DNA of 64,000 bases from an uncultured Acidobacteriota bacterium (GTDB taxonomy: Bacteria; Acidobacteriota; Thermoanaerobaculia; Multivoradales; UBA5704), in contig CAVYRF010000002.1 of assembly GCA_963770895.1 (NCBI GenBank), positions 1,504,001-1,568,000 on the forward strand, given 5' to 3'. Every line of letters begins with the position of its first letter. Within the stretch, counting starts at the first letter, position 1. A program made the translations under genes and the position numbers. Below the pieces are notes generated by a model. The model ran no database searches. It saw only the letters and a program-made list of their open reading frames with translations, and had not been told where the DNA came from. Below, piece after piece: positions 50,839-61,859 of the stretch.

Positions 50839-52880
50839 TCAATCTTCAACCAGTGTAGCCCACCCGTAGCCCGGCGGACCCGTTCGGGACGTAGACTGCG
50901 CGTTGTCGCTGAGCCACTGCAGGAAGGGAGGTAGCTTCAGTAGGTTCTGCAGCTCCTGCTGGTACAGCATCTGCAGCACAACGCCTTCCGTAGCCAGGAG
51001 GTTCATGAAGTTGCTCAGGCTACTGGGCGACGGGATGCTGTCGTCTGGCACCAACTGCGGTTGTGAGGGATCGGTAGGTATCGGCAATGAGCTAGGGGGA
51101 AGCGCCCCTGGTACGCGGGGACTGGGGCCTCCTCTCTGCCAATTCTTCCACTTCCAGTCATGAGCGTGTGGATCTCCCTGACCGTGATCGTGGCCGTAGT
51201 CAATGTCTTTGTCGGCACAGCCGTCGGGACCAAAGTGCCTCCAAGTTCCACCCCCATCGGGATCAGGGATCCATTGCCACGTGTCCGGCGGACCCCCCCG
51301 AGCGGGGGGTTTCCAAGAGTCGCCGAGGGGGTCGAACAGATTCACCGGATCACCGGACGCGTATTGGTAAAGGCCTGTCTCGCCAGTCTGCGGTTTGGGA
51401 TCGCGGCTCTCCCACCGTCCGAGGCTTGGATCATAAGCGCGGAACTTGGTGAGGGAGAGGCCCGAGGGAGAGTGGTAATAGTAACTTGCAAAACCGAACC
51501 TTGGCGGGGTGCCTTCGTTGATGGTGAGGCGGCCGTACGGGTCATAGTCGTAGCGGCTGACGACATTGCCGCTGGTATCGGTGACTTCGCGCACGCTGCC
51601 CAGATGGTCGTAGGAGAAGTAGTAATTGCCACCGCCGGACTGCATGCCTCCCGGGAAGAAGCGGGTGAGGATCGGCTCAGTTGGGCAGGTGATGGTCTTG
51701 GGGGTGTCTCCCAAGGGGATGGTGGTGCCGGAATAGGTGATGGACAGGCTGTGGGTGGTGCCGGAGTAGAGGGCTGGCGTGGAGTAGGTGAAACCGTGGT
51801 CGCCGTTGCCCTTGCCGGCAGTTTGCAGGTCCTGGCGGAAGTTGGCGGCGGGGATGGTGGCGAGCAGGGCGCCGTTGTCGTAGATGTCCACGTTGAGGGC
51901 GGCGTTGGGTTGATTGGCATCCCAGGCCCAACCAACCAGCTGGGTGCAATCGGCAGTGTCGAAGTACCCGCCGAAGTTGGCGCTGGAACAGGTGAGCGTT
52001 TGCGGGGCGCCGATGACCGTCGGCGTGCCGCCGGCTTTGAGGGTGATGGTCTGAGCGGTGCCGGTCTTGAGGGCAGCGGGGGTGGGGAGGAAGAAGCCGT
52101 GGGCGCCGTTGCCAATGCCGGCGTTTTCCAGGTCCTGGCGGAAGGTGCTGGCAAGGACGGTGGCGATCAGGGTCGTGCCGTCGTAGACGTCGACGTTGAT
52201 CGGGTCGTTGGGTTCGGTGGCGTCCCAGGCCCAGCCGGCGAGCTGGGTGCAGCTGGGGCTGGCGAACGAGCCCGCAAAGCTGGGCGCGGTACAGGTCACG
52301 GTGCGGGTGCCGAGCGACGTCGTCGTGCCGGTGAGCAAGAGCGTCACGGCCTGCGCCGTGCCGGTCTTGAAATGCGCGGGCAAGGGGTAGGTAAAGCCGT
52401 GGTTGCCGTTGCCGGCGCCGGCGAGCTTGAGGTCGCTGCGGTAGGTGTTGGCCAGCACCGTTGCCTCGCTGGTCGTGCCGGACTCGATGCTGACGCTGAC
52501 CGGCGTGTTCGGCTGGGCGGGATTCCACGCCCAGCCGGCCACCTGGTTGCAGTTGAGGCTGTCGAAGTTGCCAGGCGCGGTGACGGTTCCGGTCGGATCG
52601 ACGGTGGCGTCCGTCTCTTCGACGATCTGGTCTTCCACCCAGATGTAATGCCGGCTGCTCGCCACTGCGCCGTTGTTCAGCTCGGTGATGAGCACGCGCC
52701 GCCCCAACCCGTCGTAGGCGAACTGGCTGCGCTGGGCGCCGATGTTGATCGCGGTCAGCCGATTCTCTGCATCCCATTCGTAGGTGCGGGTGCCGTCGGA
52801 CAGCAGGTTGCCGTTGGCATCGTATTGGAACGCCTGCCCCTGGCCGAGAGCTGCGACGACCGCGTTGCCGAGGCCTGGAT
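50839..52880 (-). pseudogene. Orphan Rhs C-terminal cassette (YD repeats + 3 inserted domains + Rhs core + toxin tip)
   Basis: Near-identical to rhsB 54880-56240 (offset 3361); DHLGSVRE, RAYDPSLGRWESRDP, DPVNLFDPLG, then a different tip; no credible start. Confidence 0.85.
51520..52880. repeat. ~1.36 kb direct repeat shared with 54880-56240
   Basis: Base-by-base match at both ends with constant offset 3361 and only scattered substitutions. Confidence 0.92.
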
Positions 52881-52953: not shown

Positions 52954-53304
52954 ATGCCTTTCCCAAGAAAATTTAAACCCCTGCTTGATATCGAACTCCC
53001 CGACGTCGACAGACCGGATTACGCATGGCTCGTCTACGCAGTTTGCGCCTGCAGCAAGGATGCATGCGGCTGGGGGGGGTGGATTATCGACTCCGTGTAT
53101 CAACATACGCAGGAGCTTCGGGAGACAACGCGCGTGGATAAGCTCCTCCCCTTCGATGACACGCAGAGATGCCCGAGCTGCGGCGGCACTCTATTCAGAA
53201 CGGGAGCCGAATTGAGATTCGAGCCCTCGATCGATCAATCCCCCAAATGGGGAACACCCGGCGTCGATTATGAAGTTGTCACGATGAAATTTGAGGACGA
53301 ATGA
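52954..53304 (+). CDS. Cys-rich hypothetical protein in inverted orientation within the Rhs array
   Basis: RBS GAGGAGG; YAVCACSKDACGWGGW and RCPSCGG motifs; AT-richer than the host genes. Confidence 0.7.
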   Translation: MPFPRKFKPLLDIELPDVDRPDYAWLVYAVCACSKDACGWGGWIIDSVYQHTQELRETTRVDKLLPFDDTQRCPSCGGTLFRTGAELRFEPSIDQSPKWGTPGVDYEVVTMKFEDE

Positions 53305-53420
53305 ACCTCATCGCGCCGCGGGCGTCTGCGCTGACCGGACGGCAGCTGCCGCGCCAGGGCGGCTGCTGCGGATCTTCATTTCGTCGACGCCTCACCTCCC
53401 TCACGAGCAGTGTCGCGTTG

Positions 53421-53615
53421 TCACCAGACCAACCACAGGAAAGGTGAAGGCGGCAGCGGCGGCGGCGAATTCGACGCATTCGACCGTTGCGCTTGCAGGT
53501 AGTCAGCCAGGCCTTCCAGACCTTGCGACCACTCGTTGATGGAGTTGGCAGCCTGCGCGGCATACATTCCTTCCAGCAACTGCAAGCCCCACATCCATTG
53601 ATATAACGGGTTGGG
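53421..53615 (-). pseudogene. Remnant C-terminal tip of another Rhs cassette (tentative)
   Basis: PNPLYQWMWGLQLLEGMYAAQAANSINEWSQGLEGLADYLQAQRSNASNSPPPLPPSPFLWLVW*; similar in style to the orphan's tail and followed by the same GAGGTGAGG. Confidence 0.4.
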
Positions 53616-53650
53616 AAAGGCGAGGACACCTCGCGCCCGCCGGTGCAGCA

Positions 53651-53803
53651 GCCGCCGCCATCCCCCGCCCCCCAGACGTCACCAACCGAACCGCCTCTAA
53701 CTTGAACTCCCGACTGAATTTCCGTCTCGTCTCTGCCATCGCGTCACCCCTCTCGCCCATTATGCGGGCTTTTCGAGGTGTCCGCTAATCCGGGGCAAGG
53801 CCA
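53651..53803 (-). mobile_element. Truncated IS3-family element (left end + start of orfA)
   Basis: IRL-like TGGCCTTGCCCCGGATTAGCGGACAC; orfA MAETRRKFSREFKLEAVRLVTSGG breaks off after about 30 codons. Confidence 0.8.
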
Positions 53804-54210
53804 GAGGTTTCACCATGGCCTTCAGTGAGCTCCTCTACGGTCACACCTTCGGCCACCACCTCGATTTCACCACTTTTCGGGGTCAGGACCAGAACGTAAA
53901 GGCGATCTTTCTCGGATGCACTGAAGAGGTTGGGAAGCTCCGGGTTCTTCTCCTTGGAGAGCTCGAGGTTCTCAAAAATGCTGTCGTAACACGCAGTCTT
54001 AAACTTTAGATCGAGGACGGCGCGAAGCCCACGGGCATTCTGAAAGGTGACCTCGACCTCTCGCGGTGGGACTCGAGCCGACCGCTCGTCGGTGCGGATC
54101 CGAAATCTGACCTCATTCCCGTAGCGCGTTTCGCTCACTGCAACCGTACGCACGGAGAATTCGAACAGGCGCCAATCGTGGAAGTCGATGCGTTCAAATG
54201 CGCTGGCCAT
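53785..54210 (-). CDS. Putative immunity protein for RhsB
   Basis: Starts 22 bp after the rhsB stop with RBS GAGG; acidic 141 aa with N-terminal DFHD motif. Confidence 0.7.
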   Translation of the reverse strand: MASAFERIDFHDWRLFEFSVRTVAVSETRYGNEVRFRIRTDERSARVPPREVEVTFQNARGLRAVLDLKFKTACYDSIFENLELSKEKNPELPNLFSASEKDRLYVLVLTPKSGEIEVVAEGVTVEELTEGHGETSGLAPD

Positions 54211-54232: not shown

Positions 54233-57200
54233 TCACAACGTTGCCAGGGCCACGACCGCGCAGCATTCAGGGCAGATTATGCACCCTACAACGGCGCCGG
54301 CGGCGCCAAGTGCTAGCGCGGGAATCAACCACGGCGATGCAGGTGAGGCTGAGGGGAAATCCGGCAACTGGTGCCACCACGGGCTGAAATTGGGGATCTG
54401 CCACTTCTTGACCGGACACACCTGCGGCTTCGTCGGGTCCGCCGGTCGCGGCCTGGGATTGTCCAGTTCGTGCGCGTCGCCTCGTGCTGGGGCGTCCGGG
54501 TCCGAGTGATCCCAATCGTGACCATGGGGCGAATTCAGCTCGGGATGGTGTTCGGGATGGCCCCAGTCTTGATCGTGCAGCGGTTCTCCCTGCGGTCCCC
54601 ACAGCCGCCACTGTCCGCCCCTTCCCTGGGTGTCTCGGGAAGGGAACCACTCCCAGGTGTCCGGCTGCCCGCGAGAAGGTATGGCGCCGTCTCGATCAGA
54701 AAGGTCCTGGGGATCGTTGTCTGCATATGCATACAGGCTGGTTCCTAGGAACGGGACCGGATCGCGGCTTTCCCAGCGGCCCAGGTTGGGGTCGTAGGCG
54801 CGGTATTCGGTCAGGCTCAAACCCGACGGTTGGTGGTAGTACATCCCGGCGTACCCGAAGCGGGGCGGAACACCCTGGTTGACGGTCAGACGCCCGTAGG
54901 GGTCGTAGTCGTAGCGGCTGACGACGTTGCCGCTCGTATCGGTGACTTCGCGCACGCTGACCAGGTGGTCGTAGGAGAAGTAGTAATTGCCGCCGCCGGA
55001 CTGCATGCCTCCTGGGAAGAAGCGGGTGAGGATGGGCTCGGTTGGACAGGTGATGGTCTTTGGGGTGTCTCCCAGGGGGAGGAGAGTGCCAGAATAGGTG
55101 ACGGACAGGCTGTGCGTGGTGCCCGAGTAGAGCGCCGGCGAGGTGTAGGTGAAGCCGTGCGCGCCGTTGCCCTTGCCGGCGTTTTCCAGGTCCTGGCGGA
55201 AGTTGGCGGCGGGGAGGGTGGCGAGCAGGGCGCCGTTGTCGTAGAGGTCCACGTTGAGGGCGGCGTTGGGTTGATTGGCATCCCAGGCCCAACCAACCAG
55301 CTGGGTGCAATCGGCAGTGTCGAAGTACCCGCCGAAGTTGGCGCTGGAACAGGTGAGCGTTTGCGGGGCGCCGATGACCGTCGGCGTGCCGCCGGCTTTG
55401 AGGGTGATGGTGTGGGCGGTGCCGGTCTTGAGGGCGGCGGGCGTGGGGAGGAAGAAGCCGTGGGCGCCGTTGCCAATGCCGGCGTTTTCCAGGTCCTGGC
55501 GGAAGGTGCTGGCAAGGACGGTGGCGATCAGGGTCGTGCCGTCGTAGACGTCGACGTTGATCGGGTCGTTGGGTTCGGTGGCGTCCCACGCCCAGCCGGC
55601 GAGCTGGGTGCAGCTGGGGCTGGCGAACGAGCCCGCAAAGCTGGGCGCGGTACAGGTCACGGTGCGGGTGCCGAGCGACGTCGTCGTGCCGGTGAGCAAG
55701 AGCGTCACGGCCTGCGCCGTGCCGGTCTTGAAATGCGCGGGCAAGGGGTAGGTAAAGCCGTGGTTGCCGTTGCCGGCGCCGGCGAGCTTGAGGTCGCTGC
55801 GGTAGGTGTTGGCCAGCACCGTCGCCTCGCTGGTCGTGCCGGACTCGATGCTGACGCTGACCGGCGTGTTCGGCTGGGCGGGATTCCACGCCCAGCCGGC
55901 CACCTGGTTGCAGTTGAGGCTGTCGAAGTTGCCAGGCGCGGTGACGGTTCCGGTCGGATCGACGGTGGCGTCCGTCTCTTCGACGATCTGGTCTCCCACC
56001 CAGATGTAATGCCGGCTGGTGACCACCGCGCCGTTGCTCAATTCGGTGATCAGCACGCGCCGCCCCAGCCCGTCGTACGCGAACTGGCTGCGCTGGGCGC
56101 CGATGTTGATCGCGGTCAGCCGATTCTCTGCATCCCATTCGTAGGTGCGGGTCCCGTCGGACAGCAGGTTGCCGTTGGCATCGTATCGGAACGCCTGCCC
56201 CTGGCCGGGAACGGTGACGACCGCGGTTGCGGAGGCCTGCACCTGCGGGTCGGCGTGGCTCGCGGCGGTGATGGTGACGGTGCCGTCGATCGTGGGGGCC
56301 GTGAAGAGCCCGGTCGCGTCGATCGAACCTGCCGACGCGGACCACAGGACGCCGGTGTCGGCGGCGCCGGTGACGGCGGCGGTGAACTGCTGCATGCCGC
56401 CCGCGGCCACCGCGGTTTCCGCCGGGGCGACGGCGATCCCGATCAGCGGGCCGGCGCTCACGGTCACCGTCGCCAAGCCCTGCACGGGACCGCCTCCCAC
56501 CGCGGTGGACGCCGCCAGGACGTGATAGACGCCAGCGCTGGCGGGAGCAGTGTAGAGCCCCGCCGCGGTGATACTGCCGCCCGCTGAGCCCTCCTGGACG
56601 CTCCAGGTCACGGCCGGGTTGGCGACGCCGCTGACCTGCGCGGTGAAGGCCTGGCTGGCGCCCGGCGCCAGGCTCGGCGACGACGGCAGGATCATCAGGC
56701 CTTCGCCCACCGTCACCGTCGCGGTGCCCGATTGCGCCGGATTCGCCGCTGCCGTGGCCGTGACGGTGTAGACGCCGGGCACGGCAGGCGCGGTGAACAG
56801 GCCGTTGGCTGCAATCGACGCTGCGCCCGGACCGGCAACCGACCAGGTCACCGCCTGGTTGGGATGCGGCTCACCGTTGGGGTCTTCCACCACCGCCGTG
56901 AAGGGCTCCTGCTGCCCGGAATCGAGCACCGAGCGCGACGGCGAAACGGCGACTCCGCTCACCGGCATGGTGGTCACGACCGTCAGCGCCGCGGTGCTGG
57001 TCGCCAGCGGGTTGCCCAAGGTCTGCACCGTGACGGTGTAGGAGCCGGCGGCCGCGCTGACCGGCACCTGGAGCAGACCGGTGCTCGAAAAGATAGCTCC
57101 CGGCAACGTCGAGGACCATTGCACGCTCTGCTGGCTGCCGGTCACGTCGGCAAAGAATTGCCGCGAGGTGCCTGGCAGGACGGTCACGGCCGCCGGCGCC

Positions 57201-57838
57201 ACGGCGACGTCGACCACCTGCACGGTCGCAACGGCCACGACACCGGAGAGGTTGTTTTCCAAGTTTTCGACATAGACGTGGAACGTCCCTCCCGACCGGC
57301 CTGCGTTGTGGTAGAACTGGCCGACGGGGCCAGCATCCGCTTGACCACCCCCAAGCGCCCAACCGCTCGGATCATCCGTCCACCAAGCGTATGCCTGCGA
57401 GCTCGCGTTGACGACGCTGGCGTAGAAATCGATGGTCTGGCCGGCAGCGACCACGGCAGTCAGCGGGCTCACCGAGGTCACCGGAGGGCCTGGAACGGTG
57501 ATGTTGAGATGCCCCGTGGTGCCGTCACCGCCAGTGCCGGTCAGGGTGTACACGCCGGCCGTGGTGCCGGCAGTGACCTGGATCGACGTATTGGTGAAAT
57601 TGCTCAGGGTGACTCCTGCCGATGGGTAAATCGACCAGGTGACCCCGTAGGCACCGGGATTGTCGATTCCGTTGTAGGTCGCATATTCGGTCTGGTTCAA
57701 AGTGGTCGGTCCGCTGATCGTGACCGTTTCCTGGGCACCTGCCGGCCGGATCGAGCCGCCGGCAACGATGACGGCGCACACCAGGACGAACGGCAGCCAC
57801 CGGCCGCGCACGGCTTCCACCCGACGCTCAGTTCTCAT
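54233..57838 (-). CDS. RhsB: signal peptide + Ig-like repeats + distal Rhs shell and core + C-terminal toxin
   Basis: RBS GGGAGG; signal peptide ...PAGAQ; BIG2-like VxPxxxxV...QFTAxV...VxWS...G.I...GLFTAP repeats; YDANGNL, WDAENRL, YDGLGRR, YDPYG, RAYDPNLGRWESRDP, DPQDLSDRDG. Confidence 0.88.
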   Translation of the reverse strand: MRTERRVEAVRGRWLPFVLVCAVIVAGGSIRPAGAQETVTISGPTTLNQTEYATYNGIDNPGAYGVTWSIYPSAGVTLSNFTNTSIQVTAGTTAGVYTLTGTGGDGTTGHLNITVPGPPVTSVSPLTAVVAAGQTIDFYASVVNASSQAYAWWTDDPSGWALGGGQADAGPVGQFYHNAGRSGGTFHVYVENLENNLSGVVAVATVQVVDVAVAPAAVTVLPGTSRQFFADVTGSQQSVQWSSTLPGAIFSSTGLLQVPVSAAAGSYTVTVQTLGNPLATSTAALTVVTTMPVSGVAVSPSRSVLDSGQQEPFTAVVEDPNGEPHPNQAVTWSVAGPGAASIAANGLFTAPAVPGVYTVTATAAANPAQSGTATVTVGEGLMILPSSPSLAPGASQAFTAQVSGVANPAVTWSVQEGSAGGSITAAGLYTAPASAGVYHVLAASTAVGGGPVQGLATVTVSAGPLIGIAVAPAETAVAAGGMQQFTAAVTGAADTGVLWSASAGSIDATGLFTAPTIDGTVTITAASHADPQVQASATAVVTVPGQGQAFRYDANGNLLSDGTRTYEWDAENRLTAINIGAQRSQFAYDGLGRRVLITELSNGAVVTSRHYIWVGDQIVEETDATVDPTGTVTAPGNFDSLNCNQVAGWAWNPAQPNTPVSVSIESGTTSEATVLANTYRSDLKLAGAGNGNHGFTYPLPAHFKTGTAQAVTLLLTGTTTSLGTRTVTCTAPSFAGSFASPSCTQLAGWAWDATEPNDPINVDVYDGTTLIATVLASTFRQDLENAGIGNGAHGFFLPTPAALKTGTAHTITLKAGGTPTVIGAPQTLTCSSANFGGYFDTADCTQLVGWAWDANQPNAALNVDLYDNGALLATLPAANFRQDLENAGKGNGAHGFTYTSPALYSGTTHSLSVTYSGTLLPLGDTPKTITCPTEPILTRFFPGGMQSGGGNYYFSYDHLVSVREVTDTSGNVVSRYDYDPYGRLTVNQGVPPRFGYAGMYYHQPSGLSLTEYRAYDPNLGRWESRDPVPFLGTSLYAYADNDPQDLSDRDGAIPSRGQPDTWEWFPSRDTQGRGGQWRLWGPQGEPLHDQDWGHPEHHPELNSPHGHDWDHSDPDAPARGDAHELDNPRPRPADPTKPQVCPVKKWQIPNFSPWWHQLPDFPSASPASPWLIPALALGAAGAVVGCIICPECCAVVALATL

Positions 57839-60800
57839 GGCTGCCCTCCCTGACGCTGTCTGAAGCCGCCTGGGCGGCTCCGGCTGGACTTCGCGGCGGC
57901 GCCGCCGGCCGGCGGGCGCGCAGCTGCTGCATCGCCGCCTGCGCCTGCAAGCTGAGGCCGGAGTCGAGCGTGAGCAGCTGATTGGCGCCGTCGTAGGTCG
58001 CGGTCGAAAGAGCCGTGTCGATGGTCTCGCTGGTGCGGTTGCCCGACGGGTCGTAGCCGGCCGCGTAGGTGTGCAGCGTCGTCACCGGCGACTGCGCCGG
58101 GTCGGTAGTCTGCTGGCGCGCGATCAGCTGCTGGGCGCCGTCGTAGGTGAAGTTGAAGAAGCGGCCCGCCGGGTTGTCGACGTCGAACCAGGAGAGGCCG
58201 ACGATCTGCTGGTGCGCAGGATCGTAGGAGTAGCTGAACTGCGACAGGTTGGGGCCGTTCGCGGTGGAACCCCAGACCACCTGCGATAATCGGAAGTCTT
58301 GCGTCGGACCGAGATAGGAATACGCCGCTCCCTGGCCATTGGGATAGGACAGCGTGGCCATGCGGTTGGACGATCCGACGTAGGTCGCGGTGAACGTGCC
58401 GAGCGGGCTTGCCAGGGTCGTCAGACGGTCCTCGCTGTCGTAGGCCCGCGTCTGCGCCACGCCGTCGACCGTCTGACCGACGCGCCGACCATTGACGTCG
58501 TATTGAAAGGTGATCGTGTGATTGGGGGCCGGCGCAGTGATGCTGGCGATCTGCCCCGCGCCGACGCTGCCCGCGGGGTTGTAGCCGTAGAGCGTCGAAC
58601 CGAACGCATCGGTCATCATCGTCAAGCGCGGATAGTACTGGTCGTAGAAGTACTGCACGCCGGGCGTCGCGTGCACGCTGTTCTGATAGGTGATCGCCGC
58701 CAGCCGGTTGTCGACGGTATAGCTGTAGTTGGTGACCTGGCCGAGACCGTCGGTGCGCCGGATCAACCTGCCGGCGTCGTCATAGGCGAAGAGCGCCACC
58801 GTGGCGCCGTTGACCTGCTTGCCGACGACGCGGTTGAGGCCGTCGAGCATCCAGGTGGTCAGGTAGCCTCGCGGGTCCGCCACCTGCGACAGCGTGCCAC
58901 AGCCGCACCAGGAATAGGTCGTGGTTCTGCCTGCCGGGTCGGTGACGGTAGCCAGGCGGTCGGCCGCGTCGTAGGCGTACGTGGTGACCCGTCCCATCCG
59001 GTCCTGGTAGGCCACGACATCCAGTTTGTTGAAAACCACCTGATCCACCGTGCCGTCCGGATAGGTGATCTGCGTGAGGCGATCCAGCGAGTCGTAGCGG
59101 AACGTCAAGGTGTAGCCGTCGGTCGACGTCCAGGTCAGCAGCCGATTGGCGGAGTCGTAGGTGTAGGTCTCCTGGTAGGTGGTCCCGGCGATCGCTTTCT
59201 GGATCAGAAAACCCCGGCTGTCGTAGGTGTAGTTGGTGGTCACCCCATCCGGCCGCTGCGCGGAAGTCATCTCGCCCAAGCCGTTATAGGTGAACGTCGA
59301 CCGCTGGCCCGCGTAGTCGACGTAGGTGAGCGGTTCATGTACCGAGTTGTAGGTCAGGGCGGCCAGCTGCTCGCCGGCCCACGTGATGCCGGTGCCGCCA
59401 CCGTCCAACTGCGCGGCGAGCACCTTGATCAGATCGATTCCGTTGGCTGCATACAGGTAGTTATAGCTGCGGCCCGCCGGGTCGGCGTAGGTCAGCGGCC
59501 GACCCGAGGAATCGTAGCTGGAGGTGCTTGTCTGGGTCTGGCCGGTGTCGAGCACCGTCGCCGTGACGGTCGGCGCCGAAAGGCTTCCCTGGTCGCTGTC
59601 GCCAGGCATGTTGGGATAGTTCATCCAGATGCGGCGCTCCCCCTGCGGCTGGACAAAACCCGGGATCGAGGAGGCCGCCGTCCCGCCTTCCGAAAAATCG
59701 CGCAGCCAGTGGGTGGTGAAAGTCGCGTTCAGATATCGGTTGGGGTCGGCGGCGTTGTACTGCTCCATCGCCGTCGGATTCCAATAGTAGGTGTTGCGGT
59801 ACGCCAGGTTCTCGTTGCCGAAGCCGGCGGGGATCGGCTCGGTCGTGGTCTCTGGAACGTTCTGCGCTTGGTGGGTGAACTCGATCCGCTCCTGGTGGCC
59901 GAGCGGGTCGGTCGCCAGAAGCCAGCGGATGTTGCCCAGGTCGGTTTCGACGCACGGCGGCGCCTCCCCCATGGCGAAGGTCGTCGTGCCGTAGGGAGTG
60001 GTCATCGCGTTCATGAAATCTGCCGGCACCGCGTACACCGTGTCGTAGCCGCTGTTGAGGCAATAGGGCGGCGCCGGCGGCGGCACGGTCGGACCGTAGG
60101 CGAACGACGACGTCATGCCGGCGGCGTCGGTGACGCTTTGCAGCTCGCCGCCGGAGTACTGGAACAGCGCCTGGCGCCCAAACGGGTCGGTGACCGCGGT
60201 GACCTTGTACATGTCGCCCGCCAGCCCATAGGTGAGCGTCGTCGTCTGGCCCAGCGCATCGGTGATCGACAGCAGGCGCGTCGTCGCGGCGTCGTAGTTG
60301 AGGGTGACCGTATTGCCCACCGCATCCGTCACCGCGGTCAGGTAGTACTTGCGCATCGTGGCAGCGTTGTCCGAGAGCTCATAGGTGTCCTGCGAACCGT
60401 CGGGGTACTGCCGCACGAAGCCGACGGTGCTGTTCGCACCCGTCTGGAACAGGCGCATCACCGTGTCGTGCGCGCCGCTCACGTTGGGGCCATACGCCCA
60501 CCAATAGACTGCCGAAACCTGCGACAGGATGTACGAGCCGCCGCCGCGCTCGGCGACGCGGATGGTATTGCCGTTGCCGTTGGGGTCGTCATCTTCGACG
60601 TAGGAGAGCCAGTCGAAGTTCCAGCGCGAGCCCAGGTTGGTGTACGTGAACGTGGCCGGCTGAAAGTCCTCGCGGCTGTTGTAGGTGATGCCGAACCGCA
60701 TCGCCGGTCCGCGCGGCGGCTGGTAGCCGACCGGAGAGTCGGTGATGTTCAAGCTCACCACCGCGGTGTGAAAGTTGTAGACCGGCATGCCGACGCCGTT

Positions 60801-61859
60801 GCCGCCGCACAGCGCCGGCTTCTTGGGGTCGGCCGGCGTGGTCGCTCCCGGATTGGGGTTGGCGCTGGCGCCTCGGCCGCGCACCGCGGCCGCCTCCGCG
60901 GGCGTCACCGCACGCCACCCCGCCGGCAGGGACTCCCCAAGCCGGGCGAGCAGGTAGCCAGAGGACTCCTCTTCCACGGCGGCGCGGCTCAGCCAGCGGT
61001 TGTCGCCGAACGTCATGTCCTTGACCAGGTAGCGGCTTCCCTGCTGCGCGACGAGCGCCGCGAAGTGGCCGGCCTTCCAATGCACCACCGCCGGCACCGG
61101 GATGGGAGAGCCGGCCTGGCGCTGGACCGCGCGCAGATCCAGGCCGGTCGCCTGGGCGAGGTGCGCCATCTCGGCCAGCGACGTGCCCTGGCCCGTCGAG
61201 CGGTAGCGCAGCACCCGCGGATCGGGAGCGGCGCCCGGATGCAGCACCGCGGCGACCCGCTCAATGGCCAACGGGCCGCAGCGGAAGGAGCTGCCCGGAT
61301 CGTGGCGCATCTGCCACAGGCTCGACCGCGCGCCCGAGACGATCTCCGCGGCGTGACCGCGCAGGGAACGGCTCCGCACCGCGTCGAGCAGAGCCGTCAG
61401 CTCCTCCGTGCGGCCCAGGGCGGAGGTGATCTCGACGCGGGTCGCCAGCGCCGTATCGGCAATCCTGGTCGCCTCGGGGTCTGAAGACGTCGCGGTCCGC
61501 CGCCAGGCGTCTTCGGCCGCGGCCAGGGCGCGGTCCAGGTAGCCGGTGTGGCGGTAGAGCACCGCCAGGTTGGCGAGCAAGGACGGCTTCCAGGCCGAAT
61601 CGGGGTGGCGTTGCAGAAAGTCGACGACCGGCTGCACCGCCTCGATGTCCCCGGCGGCGCGATAGGAGCGGATCACCGCTGCCAGCTCGCGGGTCTCCTT
61701 CATGCCAGGCTCTCCCACCGGCCTGAGCGGTTCGGCAAACGTCCGCCCTGGCTCAGGCGGCTCGATCTTGACCGCGCCCACGTATGTCTGGCCATAGCTC
61801 ATCGAGGCGAGCACGACGGTCGCCACTGTGGCCATCAGCAGGGGTTTTTCCAGTCGCAT
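57828..61859 (-). CDS. RhsA: signal peptide + TPR-like + C39-like peptidase + YD repeats, without Rhs core
   Basis: Signal peptide ...SMSYGQ; FRCGP, GTSLAEM, VVHWKAGHFAALV, YLVKD; many YD repeats (YDAADRL, YDSLDRL, YDPSGNR); ends at YDGANQL with no RYxDPxxGR or DPxG. Confidence 0.88.
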   Translation of the reverse strand: MRLEKPLLMATVATVVLASMSYGQTYVGAVKIEPPEPGRTFAEPLRPVGEPGMKETRELAAVIRSYRAAGDIEAVQPVVDFLQRHPDSAWKPSLLANLAVLYRHTGYLDRALAAAEDAWRRTATSSDPEATRIADTALATRVEITSALGRTEELTALLDAVRSRSLRGHAAEIVSGARSSLWQMRHDPGSSFRCGPLAIERVAAVLHPGAAPDPRVLRYRSTGQGTSLAEMAHLAQATGLDLRAVQRQAGSPIPVPAVVHWKAGHFAALVAQQGSRYLVKDMTFGDNRWLSRAAVEEESSGYLLARLGESLPAGWRAVTPAEAAAVRGRGASANPNPGATTPADPKKPALCGGNGVGMPVYNFHTAVVSLNITDSPVGYQPPRGPAMRFGITYNSREDFQPATFTYTNLGSRWNFDWLSYVEDDDPNGNGNTIRVAERGGGSYILSQVSAVYWWAYGPNVSGAHDTVMRLFQTGANSTVGFVRQYPDGSQDTYELSDNAATMRKYYLTAVTDAVGNTVTLNYDAATTRLLSITDALGQTTTLTYGLAGDMYKVTAVTDPFGRQALFQYSGGELQSVTDAAGMTSSFAYGPTVPPPAPPYCLNSGYDTVYAVPADFMNAMTTPYGTTTFAMGEAPPCVETDLGNIRWLLATDPLGHQERIEFTHQAQNVPETTTEPIPAGFGNENLAYRNTYYWNPTAMEQYNAADPNRYLNATFTTHWLRDFSEGGTAASSIPGFVQPQGERRIWMNYPNMPGDSDQGSLSAPTVTATVLDTGQTQTSTSSYDSSGRPLTYADPAGRSYNYLYAANGIDLIKVLAAQLDGGGTGITWAGEQLAALTYNSVHEPLTYVDYAGQRSTFTYNGLGEMTSAQRPDGVTTNYTYDSRGFLIQKAIAGTTYQETYTYDSANRLLTWTSTDGYTLTFRYDSLDRLTQITYPDGTVDQVVFNKLDVVAYQDRMGRVTTYAYDAADRLATVTDPAGRTTTYSWCGCGTLSQVADPRGYLTTWMLDGLNRVVGKQVNGATVALFAYDDAGRLIRRTDGLGQVTNYSYTVDNRLAAITYQNSVHATPGVQYFYDQYYPRLTMMTDAFGSTLYGYNPAGSVGAGQIASITAPAPNHTITFQYDVNGRRVGQTVDGVAQTRAYDSEDRLTTLASPLGTFTATYVGSSNRMATLSYPNGQGAAYSYLGPTQDFRLSQVVWGSTANGPNLSQFSYSYDPAHQQIVGLSWFDVDNPAGRFFNFTYDGAQQLIARQQTTDPAQSPVTTLHTYAAGYDPSGNRTSETIDTALSTATYDGANQLLTLDSGLSLQAQAAMQQLRARRPAAPPRSPAGAAQAASDSVREGSHEN

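Follow-up and report, generated by a model that had tools for sequence, protein, structure and literature searches.

An Rhs toxin split between two adjacent genes in Acidobacteriota, with halves that may assemble in trans

Can the shell of an Rhs toxin be encoded in two pieces, each carrying its own export signal, and would those pieces find one another again? The question is raised by rhsA and rhsB, two adjacent genes on the minus strand of a 64,000-nucleotide stretch of the genome of an uncultured bacterium from a soil lineage of Acidobacteriota (hereafter the window). A preliminary description, made from the letters of the window, had read them as an undescribed two-gene Rhs polymorphic toxin in which a constant shell and protease subunit and an exchangeable adhesin-plug-toxin subunit are exported separately and form the cage together. 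The two-gene arrangement itself proved genuine, with open reading frames (ORFs) at these positions (Table 1), at seven loci of the same genome and in other genomes. Because it recurs in this way, the arrangement lies far beyond chance. We regard it as almost certain that the A–B fission is real and conserved, and as probable that rhsA–rhsB represents a conserved fission of a widespread secreted Rhs family whose halves assemble in trans.

The genome to which the window belongs (8.16 Mb in 3 contigs, 95% complete) carries seven A–B loci, p1 to p7, which share 60–95% identity and give an A to B ratio of 1:1. Six of the seven keep the junction, and all six show a stop of A and a restart of B: RhsA ends ~45 amino acids (aa) past one and the same YD repeat, and RhsB begins with its own start codon and a hydrophobic leader. 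The 11-nt overlap and the separate ribosome-binding site of rhsB that had been described for the window hold good, and the overlap is common to p1–p5, with the same C-terminal and N-terminal residues around it; p6 has a 4-nt ATGA overlap. Spacing varies further across the members of the group, from overlaps of 11 nt, 4 nt and the GTGA type to gaps of 38 and 56 nt.

Pairwise dN/dS (omega) between the loci was 0.11–0.36 for the A shell, and 0.31–0.42, 0.14–0.33 and 0.26–0.29 for the immunoglobulin-like (Ig), YD and core regions of B, respectively, with dS up to ~1. Omega well below 1 on both genes indicates that both have been kept by selection while split. RhsA is the more conserved partner, as had been proposed, with a dN between p1 and p2 of 0.023 for its shell versus 0.125 for the Ig region of RhsB. 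The earlier suggestion to look at reads over the junction was followed with metagenome contigs from 4 runs in 2 studies, which cross 57828–57838 without an indel; these contigs are fragmented short-read metagenome assemblies, no one piece of which covers the whole 1.1 kb. The only indel seen was an in-frame 6-nt insertion at window position 57899, in the tail of A, in one variant contig; it is probably a paralogue or strain variant.

Read by eye, the N-terminus of RhsA resembles a signal peptide: a short charged segment leads into a hydrophobic stretch, with small residues just ahead of ~residue 23. A helical region comes next. The next domain resembles C39 peptidases, with a weak further match to the C39-like domain of HlyB (3zua, E 0.012). 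Its residues C194, H265 and D281 are invariant in 23 split homologues and in 49 split plus fused homologues, which come from many phyla, and because of this invariance the domain is probably active. It is a trait of the whole family and not of the split. Neither Pfam nor NCBIfam detects an ABC transporter domain in RhsA, unlike in the bacteriocin-processing C39 peptidases, which are fused to an ABC exporter and cut double-glycine leaders. The protease earlier assigned to the constant subunit thus needs rewording: the Rhs autoproteolytic core lies in RhsB, and the peptidase of RhsA is a different, C39-like one.

The remainder of RhsA is a YD-repeat shell (RHS_repeat PF05593, 171.8 bits) in which Pfam and NCBIfam find no Rhs-associated core, in agreement with the preliminary description. 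An AlphaFold model of residues 145–1343, built with 49 sequences in the alignment, has a predicted local distance difference test score (pLDDT) of 86.6 and a predicted template-modelling score (pTM) of 0.82. Beta-hairpins run unbroken up to residue 1302 (model residue 1158), followed by a helix at model residues 1160–1171 and by a stretch with pLDDT <50 from 1173 onwards. The predicted secondary structure suggests that this end of the shell is open. The tail is the fastest-evolving part of A (omega 0.54–0.87) and is absent from fused homologues. A Foldseek search of the model against pdb returned cocoons of type VI secretion system (T6SS) Rhs effectors at the top (E ~1e-43, template-modelling score ~0.5; 8qjc, E 4e-44), with teneurins, TcdB2–TccC3 (4o9x) and YenB/YenC2 (4igl) among further matches. 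By sequence, too, the best solved-structure matches of RhsA are T6SS Rhs effectors, at E ~1e-22.

RhsB, as had been claimed, combines adhesin-like domains, a core plug and a toxin. Its N-terminus also looks like a signal peptide to the eye, with an n-region rich in Arg, 14 hydrophobic residues in a row and then an A-G-A site, so that both subunits present a charged n-region, 12–15 hydrophobic residues and a small-x-small site, as the preliminary description had it. Similar leader-like N-termini were seen, again by eye, in every B examined. The array that follows matches Big_2, with weak Big_2/Ig matches across ~118–415 and I-set, Big_1 and PKD matches near or below the cut-off. The YD strands that resume after the array correspond to a region located 0 to ~80 aa after the end of the A-equivalent part in fused homologues, at 35–60% identity.

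Between these strands and the core, RhsB carries an insert of three tandem repeats, each with a conserved Cys...GWAW...NG.HGF pattern and none with a Pfam match. Neither the Holophagaceae B proteins nor any of the fused homologues has this insert, and in one relative (L028) another insert occupies its place. The core scores 60 bits against TIGR03696 (Rhs_assc_core, residues 978–1051), above a cut-off of 32.5, and matches the cores of RhsP (8h8a), a teneurin-like protein (9pt5) and TccC2 (6l7i_G). An Asp-Pro-x-Gly type cleavage motif occupies a column conserved in 10 B proteins, from which RhsB of the window (P0002) deviates slightly, and the core would be expected to cleave itself. Past the core motif the alignment diverges fully into the toxin tip. 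When seven toxin tips and one immunity-candidate ORF were searched against Pfam at E up to 1, no tip gave a match, and the sole match among the eight proteins was DUF5997, at chance level, on the immunity candidate. At its end, the RhsB tip has ~30 hydrophobic, Cys-rich residues that look as if they span a membrane.

Where the shell is cut can be read from the fused homologues, which run straight through the point at which A stops and the YD strands of B resume. In P0091 (NCBI: Sorangium sp.) the A-equivalent part ends at 1271, and the B-type YD strands, which occupy 1278–1353, begin within 7 residues of that end; the core lies at 1362–1471. The claim that RhsB resumes the Rhs pattern where RhsA stopped is borne out by this continuity. 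Because of the P0091 alignment we take RhsB to supply approximately the last 200 residues of a shell-plus-core of ~1100, which puts the cut ~200 residues before the end of the core as judged from sequence. RhsA keeps the leader, the C39-like domain and ~80–85% of the shell. Added to RhsB are a start codon of its own, a leader that resembles a signal peptide, and surface-type domains in a variable array, Ig in the window and Kelch plus Ig in Holophagaceae.

The A–B pair, which the preliminary description had proposed to look for across genomes, recurs in relatives from two Acidobacteriota classes, Thermoanaerobaculia and Holophagae. Three of 60 relative genomes have A, one as a fragment only (G001), one at a single locus (G005) and one at two loci (G011), and the 3 full loci in the latter two genomes are all split, with a B ORF that has its own start after the stop of A. 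The same stop and restart is found at loci L031 and L100 of Holophagaceae metagenome-assembled genomes (MAGs) and at L044 from Acidobacteria. The Holophagaceae B proteins (L031, 8036–14143; L100, from 7836) are ~2040 aa long and are ordered as leader, Kelch-type repeats, many Ig domains, YD strands, core and tip; even here the last two Ig domains of RhsB are kept. Given these Kelch-type repeats and the long Ig series, what varies in B from one member of the clade to another is its N-terminal module. Among 401 sampled genomes of the phylum, 7 have the Ig–YD junction specific to B; A lies directly upstream in both new genomes that have upstream DNA (G344 and G429), and three other matches sit at contig edges. 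Where flanks are present, A was never seen without B or B without A.

A database search with RhsA returned 198 proteins at E<=1e-20, of which the best 120 were classified. Among these 120, 25 are A-only proteins of ~1280–1460 aa that stop at about the same place, several with the JGI label 'YD repeat-containing protein', and 84 are fused single proteins of 1500–1880 aa and 35–42% identity. The fused proteins carry B-type YD strands and core in frame after the A-equivalent region, with neither an Ig array nor a three-repeat insert, and come from Verrucomicrobiota, Acidobacteriota, Fibrobacterota (Fibrobacteria), Proteobacteria and Myxococcota (Sorangium). The preliminary description had allowed that homologues might always be single fused ORFs; the distant ones are fused, but a whole clade is split. 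In an unrooted FastTree phylogeny of 109 rows, 23 of the 25 A-only proteins fall in one clade with a support of 99, and the other two stand alone among fused forms and may be truncations. The label changes between split and fused 3 times on the tree, a count that is unchanged when only the A columns are used. Eleven fragments or odd forms (P0019, P0020, P0022, P0024, P0036, P0051, P0062, P0087, P0098, P0101 and P0108) stayed outside the trees. Since fused forms are spread over many phyla, we favor fission over fusion, and the sequences point to one lineage-specific fission as the likely event.

A scan of species-representative genomes gave 299 relatives, of which the best 80 were inspected and 45 were classifiable. 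Fused loci make up 33 of the 45. At 5 loci the core lies in a downstream ORF, namely in 3 close relatives, 1 Holophagaceae MAG and 1 frameshifted Verrucomicrobiales MAG gene; 4 end like A with no core detected, 3 of which show a B-like ORF start or a contig end; and the remaining 3 run off the contig. One locus, L039, continues for 390 aa past A with YD strands in frame and no core match, and was counted as neither form. The frameshifted Verrucomicrobiales gene (L055, ~8871) is of the fused type, with YD strands and core in another frame 86 nt past the A-equivalent end; from its sequence it looks like a frameshift, and it has no leader or Ig array, unlike the split clade. Only 10 proteins >2351 aa matched, the best of them at 33% identity over 41% of A. 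No closer form of the long fused kind turned up, which is weak evidence.

The statement that Rhs shells are normally one polypeptide overlooks TcB–TcC, whose Rhs cocoon is described as built from two separately encoded proteins (PMC11435725, PMC11067744). In the same accounts both the autoprotease of the core and the hypervariable tip belong to TcC, and tips also occur as orphans; TcC also supplies the large 'upper chamber' of the cocoon (PMC11435725). The principle of a two-protein cocoon is therefore already known, and the system cannot be called undescribed in that respect. On the level of gene structure, A–B resembles TcB–TcC in having two gene products, the second with core and toxin, and YenB–YenC2 (4igl) and TcdB2–TccC3 (4o9x) are among the fold matches of RhsA. 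The differences are considerable. Whereas TcC adds a large upper chamber, A–B is cut near the core, and B adds the last strands and the plug. A–B further has leaders on both subunits, an Ig or Kelch array on B and a C39-like peptidase on A, and it is without SpvB: PF03534 was found neither in A nor in the genome, in a search whose control gave matches. For TcA (PF18276) there was no match in the genome, and the control search likewise matched no genome. Because its nearest sequence relatives are single-chain Rhs proteins, the A–B split arose independently of TcB–TcC. A–B stands outside the Tc toxin family. It offers no new principle, but the Rhs cage has here been divided independently, in a well-conserved and possibly Sec-type form whose putative targeting modules sit on the toxin half.

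A–B belongs to the Rhs/YD polymorphic toxin superfamily and departs from it in one respect, that it is not a single polypeptide. Its closest counterparts are the fused leader–C39-like–Rhs toxins, which are homologous over all of A (35–42% identity, ~94% coverage) and over the YD strands and core of B, and which have the invariant Cys, His and Asp in common with it. They differ in being one polypeptide with no internal leader, Ig/Kelch array or three-repeat insert. We know of no experimental study of this family. T6SS Rhs effectors provide the best structure matches of A (RhsA 7q97, RhsP 8h8a/8h8b, Tse5 8cp6, Tre23-Rhs 7pq5 and Salmonella bongori Rhs 8qjb-d) and have the core type of B in common, but they are single polypeptides cleaved after folding, in contrast to the two genes here. 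The absence of PAAR, noted earlier for the window, extends to the whole 95%-complete genome, in which no PAAR, VgrG or TssC/VipB was found; A and B themselves also lack PAAR and TssC/VipB. WapA-type Sec-dependent Rhs proteins of Gram-positive bacteria begin with a signal peptide, continue with a YD shell and core, end in a polymorphic tip and come with an immunity gene; they are single, cell-wall-associated polypeptides of monoderm bacteria. Here, in contrast, there are two exported subunits, as judged from leaders read by eye, in a presumably diderm phylum. The part of the literature that could be searched, which excludes supplements that could list such proteins, yielded no paper on split Rhs proteins outside the Tc toxins, and nothing found there describes this arrangement.

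On the reading that we prefer, RhsA and RhsB would be made in coupled fashion from one operon, and each would cross the inner membrane on its own. Once there, in the periplasm or beyond the cell, the YD strands and core of RhsB would complete and plug the open shell of RhsA, with the toxin tip inside the shell and the Ig/Kelch array projecting outside as a targeting part. The core would then cleave off the tip, and recombination with orphan tails would exchange the toxin. The product would be an AB-like, mix-and-match Rhs toxin, analogous to TcB–TcC and of independent origin. We are inclined to think, from sequence, that A and B do assemble into one cocoon. That this amounts to a second independent invention of the split cocoon, in which the halves are exported unfolded and join only past the inner membrane, and a generic A is loaded in trans by any of several B proteins, each with a receptor-binding Ig/Kelch array and toxin of its own, is a tentative proposal that we would not press.

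The arrangement could be taken for damage in a single Rhs gene, either a pseudogene or a sequencing or assembly error, given that Rhs genes are repetitive and often decay and that real damage exists in p7, p4 and L055. This can hardly be the explanation: the stop, the new start and the leader are retained at 6 loci of the same genome and at loci of no fewer than 7 others, the B-specific extra domains amount to 500–1700 aa, and an error cannot create a leader and an Ig array. Paralogues, relatives, omega well below 1 on both sides of the junction and the indel-free contigs of two studies effectively refute it. Nor is a programmed frameshift or read-through at the overlap, joining A and B into one polypeptide, at all probable. 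The conservation of the 11-nt overlap among p1–p5 would suit such an event, but junctions elsewhere in the group bear no conserved frame relation, a GGAGG precedes the start of B, and a fusion would bury the hydrophobic leader inside the shell; with junction spacing so variable and a GGAGG of B's own, we rejected this explanation. The idea that the pair is a BC module of Tc type, divergent and docking on a TcA-like translocator whose gene lies elsewhere, would account for a two-protein cocoon and for TcdB2–TccC3 and YenB/YenC2 among the fold matches. It too is very unlikely and was rejected, since SpvB is missing from A and the genome, the closest folds and sequences are T6SS-type Rhs and not TcB, the cut falls near the core and not in mid-shell, both proteins have leader peptides, and the fused relatives are ordinary single-chain Rhs proteins.

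A rather unlikely but more substantial alternative is that A and B have been independent since the fission. RhsB would then be a self-sufficient adhesin-toxin that uses its YD strands and core for self-cleavage, and RhsA a toxin-less YD shell with a C39-like peptidase and another role, such as a surface structure or a protease. RhsB does have its own leader, a big adhesin-like array and the entire core and toxin; the orphan cassettes are all of the B type; and the RhsA model folds confidently alone. Against independence, every locus examined has A next to B, in most cases overlapping or nearly abutting, neither occurs alone where flanks are present and their ratio in the genome is 1:1, the cut falls within one continuous shell of 84 fused homologues, and the 95-aa YD piece of B could not, judging from Rhs structures, form a shell by itself. 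Several observations nonetheless weigh against assembly in trans or against the history that we have drawn for it. The proposed mechanism names no route across the outer membrane, the leader and adhesin-like array of B could allow it to act without A, and the signal peptides on both proteins were recognized by eye. In several B leaders an Arg-Arg pair directly precedes the hydrophobic residues, and B may for that reason be exported folded, through the twin-arginine translocation (Tat) system instead of Sec. The tree is unrooted and FastTree-built, so the direction of the fission is argued and not shown by it, and 35 of the 80 inspected loci stayed unclassified, with no match to the A C-terminus at E 1e-4. 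P0020, a 1905-aa protein from an Acidobacteriota MAG on a 6.8-kb contig, runs from A in frame into the fourth Ig domain of B and on to core and tip; it has two internal deletions, with A short of ~190 internal residues, and may equally be a genuine product of renewed fusion or paralogues wrongly joined in short-read assembly. Finally, 2 of the 7 loci in the genome look damaged: p7 (G000:C2:5442846-5449723) has lost A from ~1203 to its end together with B 1–121, with the remains out of frame, and p4 (G000:C2:653032-660506) has an interrupted N-terminal part of A.

Rhs cocoons are studied as devices for protein encapsulation and delivery, and outside the Tc toxins they are taken to be single, self-loading chains. 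If the preferred reading, assembly of A and B in trans, is true, a small subunit of plug and toxin can close and load a shell in trans, even after Sec export; were a generic A to accept several B proteins, a cell with 5–6 A genes, 5–6 B genes and orphan tails could mix targeting, shell and payload. Such a system would be a modular AB-type toxin, acting by contact or by diffusion, that works without a T6SS or TcA. The relatives form a clean evolutionary series, which starts with fused proteins and passes through split forms with Ig and with Kelch plus Ig to those with extra inserted repeats, and which lets cocoon assembly, toxin loading and targeting be examined as separable. They also point to a large Rhs family of soil and freshwater phyla that is independent of the T6SS, has a conserved C39-like peptidase and appears unstudied.

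Downstream of rhsB, P0003 is a putative immunity gene by virtue of its position; its product gives zero matches in Pfam and NCBIfam. The next large ORF, P0004, is an orphan rhsB tail without a signal peptide or Ig array. Its homology to P0002 starts at approximately B residue 537–546, exactly where the YD strands of B start, and the two are 94–96% identical over YD strands and repeats and 74% over the core. The tip of the orphan (50842–51309) and that of RhsB share a His-rich stretch of ~60 aa at 37% identity before they diverge. The candidate immunity gene of the orphan tip is unrelated to P0003 but has a counterpart, at 86% identity, in an ORF that lies 1.2 kb past rhsB of p4 on its downstream side. 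Small ORFs downstream of B vary with the tip and are alike where the tips are alike (p6 and p7), a pattern suggestive of immunity genes. Beyond these small ORFs and the orphan tails, no neighbors are conserved at all 7 A–B loci, and no large conserved neighbor gene was seen there.

Table 1. Window positions of rhsA, rhsB, their domains and the genes downstream
Feature	Position in window	Strand	Basis
rhsA (P0001), 1343-aa shell subunit	57828–61859	minus	ORF and translation
RhsA signal-peptide-like N-terminus, ~residues 1–23	61791–61859	minus	read by eye
RhsA C39-like peptidase domain, residues 194–304	60948–61280	minus	PF03412, 25.7 bits (cut-off 22)
RhsA YD-repeat shell, ~residues 360–1302, ~940 aa	57954–60782	minus	hairpins of the model; TIGR01643, 101 bits
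RhsA C-terminal tail, residues 1303–1343	57831–57953	minus	predicted helix, then low-confidence stretch
rhsA/rhsB stop/start overlap, 11 nt	57828–57838	minus	sequence; GGAGG 6 nt 5' of the B ATG
rhsB (P0002), 1201-aa adhesin-plug-toxin subunit	54233–57838	minus	ORF, domains, alignment with 9 other B proteins
RhsB signal-peptide-like N-terminus, ~residues 1–36	57731–57838	minus	read by eye
RhsB Ig-like (Big_2-type) array, residues ~37–545	56204–57730	minus	Big_2, 26.7 bits
RhsB resumed YD strands, residues 546–640	55919–56203	minus	RHS_repeat at 552–577, TIGR01643
RhsB three tandem repeats, ~95–100 aa each, residues 641–940	55019–55918	minus	inspection
RhsB Rhs core (plug and putative autoprotease), residues 941–1052	54683–55018	minus	TIGR03696
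RhsB variable toxin tip, residues 1053–1201	54236–54682	minus	alignment fully diverges past core motif
Candidate immunity gene P0003, 141 aa, without a visible signal peptide	53785–54210	minus	position, 23 nt past rhsB
Transposase helix-turn-helix fragment, 85-aa ORF	53503–53760	minus	PF01527 HTH_Tnp_1, E 1.6e-4, below cut-off
Orphan rhsB tail P0004, 755 aa	50839–53106	minus	YD strands, three repeats, core, different tip
Candidate immunity gene of the orphan tip, 138 aa	50374–50790	minus	position

Besides the helix-turn-helix fragment, the segment at 53279–53760 contains a 116-aa ORF that is common to two other A–B loci. Both lie between P0003 and P0004, and they may be remnants of mobile DNA that imported or shuffled the orphan tail. 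At p4, the interrupted A is overlapped by another N-terminal piece of an A, which has diverged to 52% identity.

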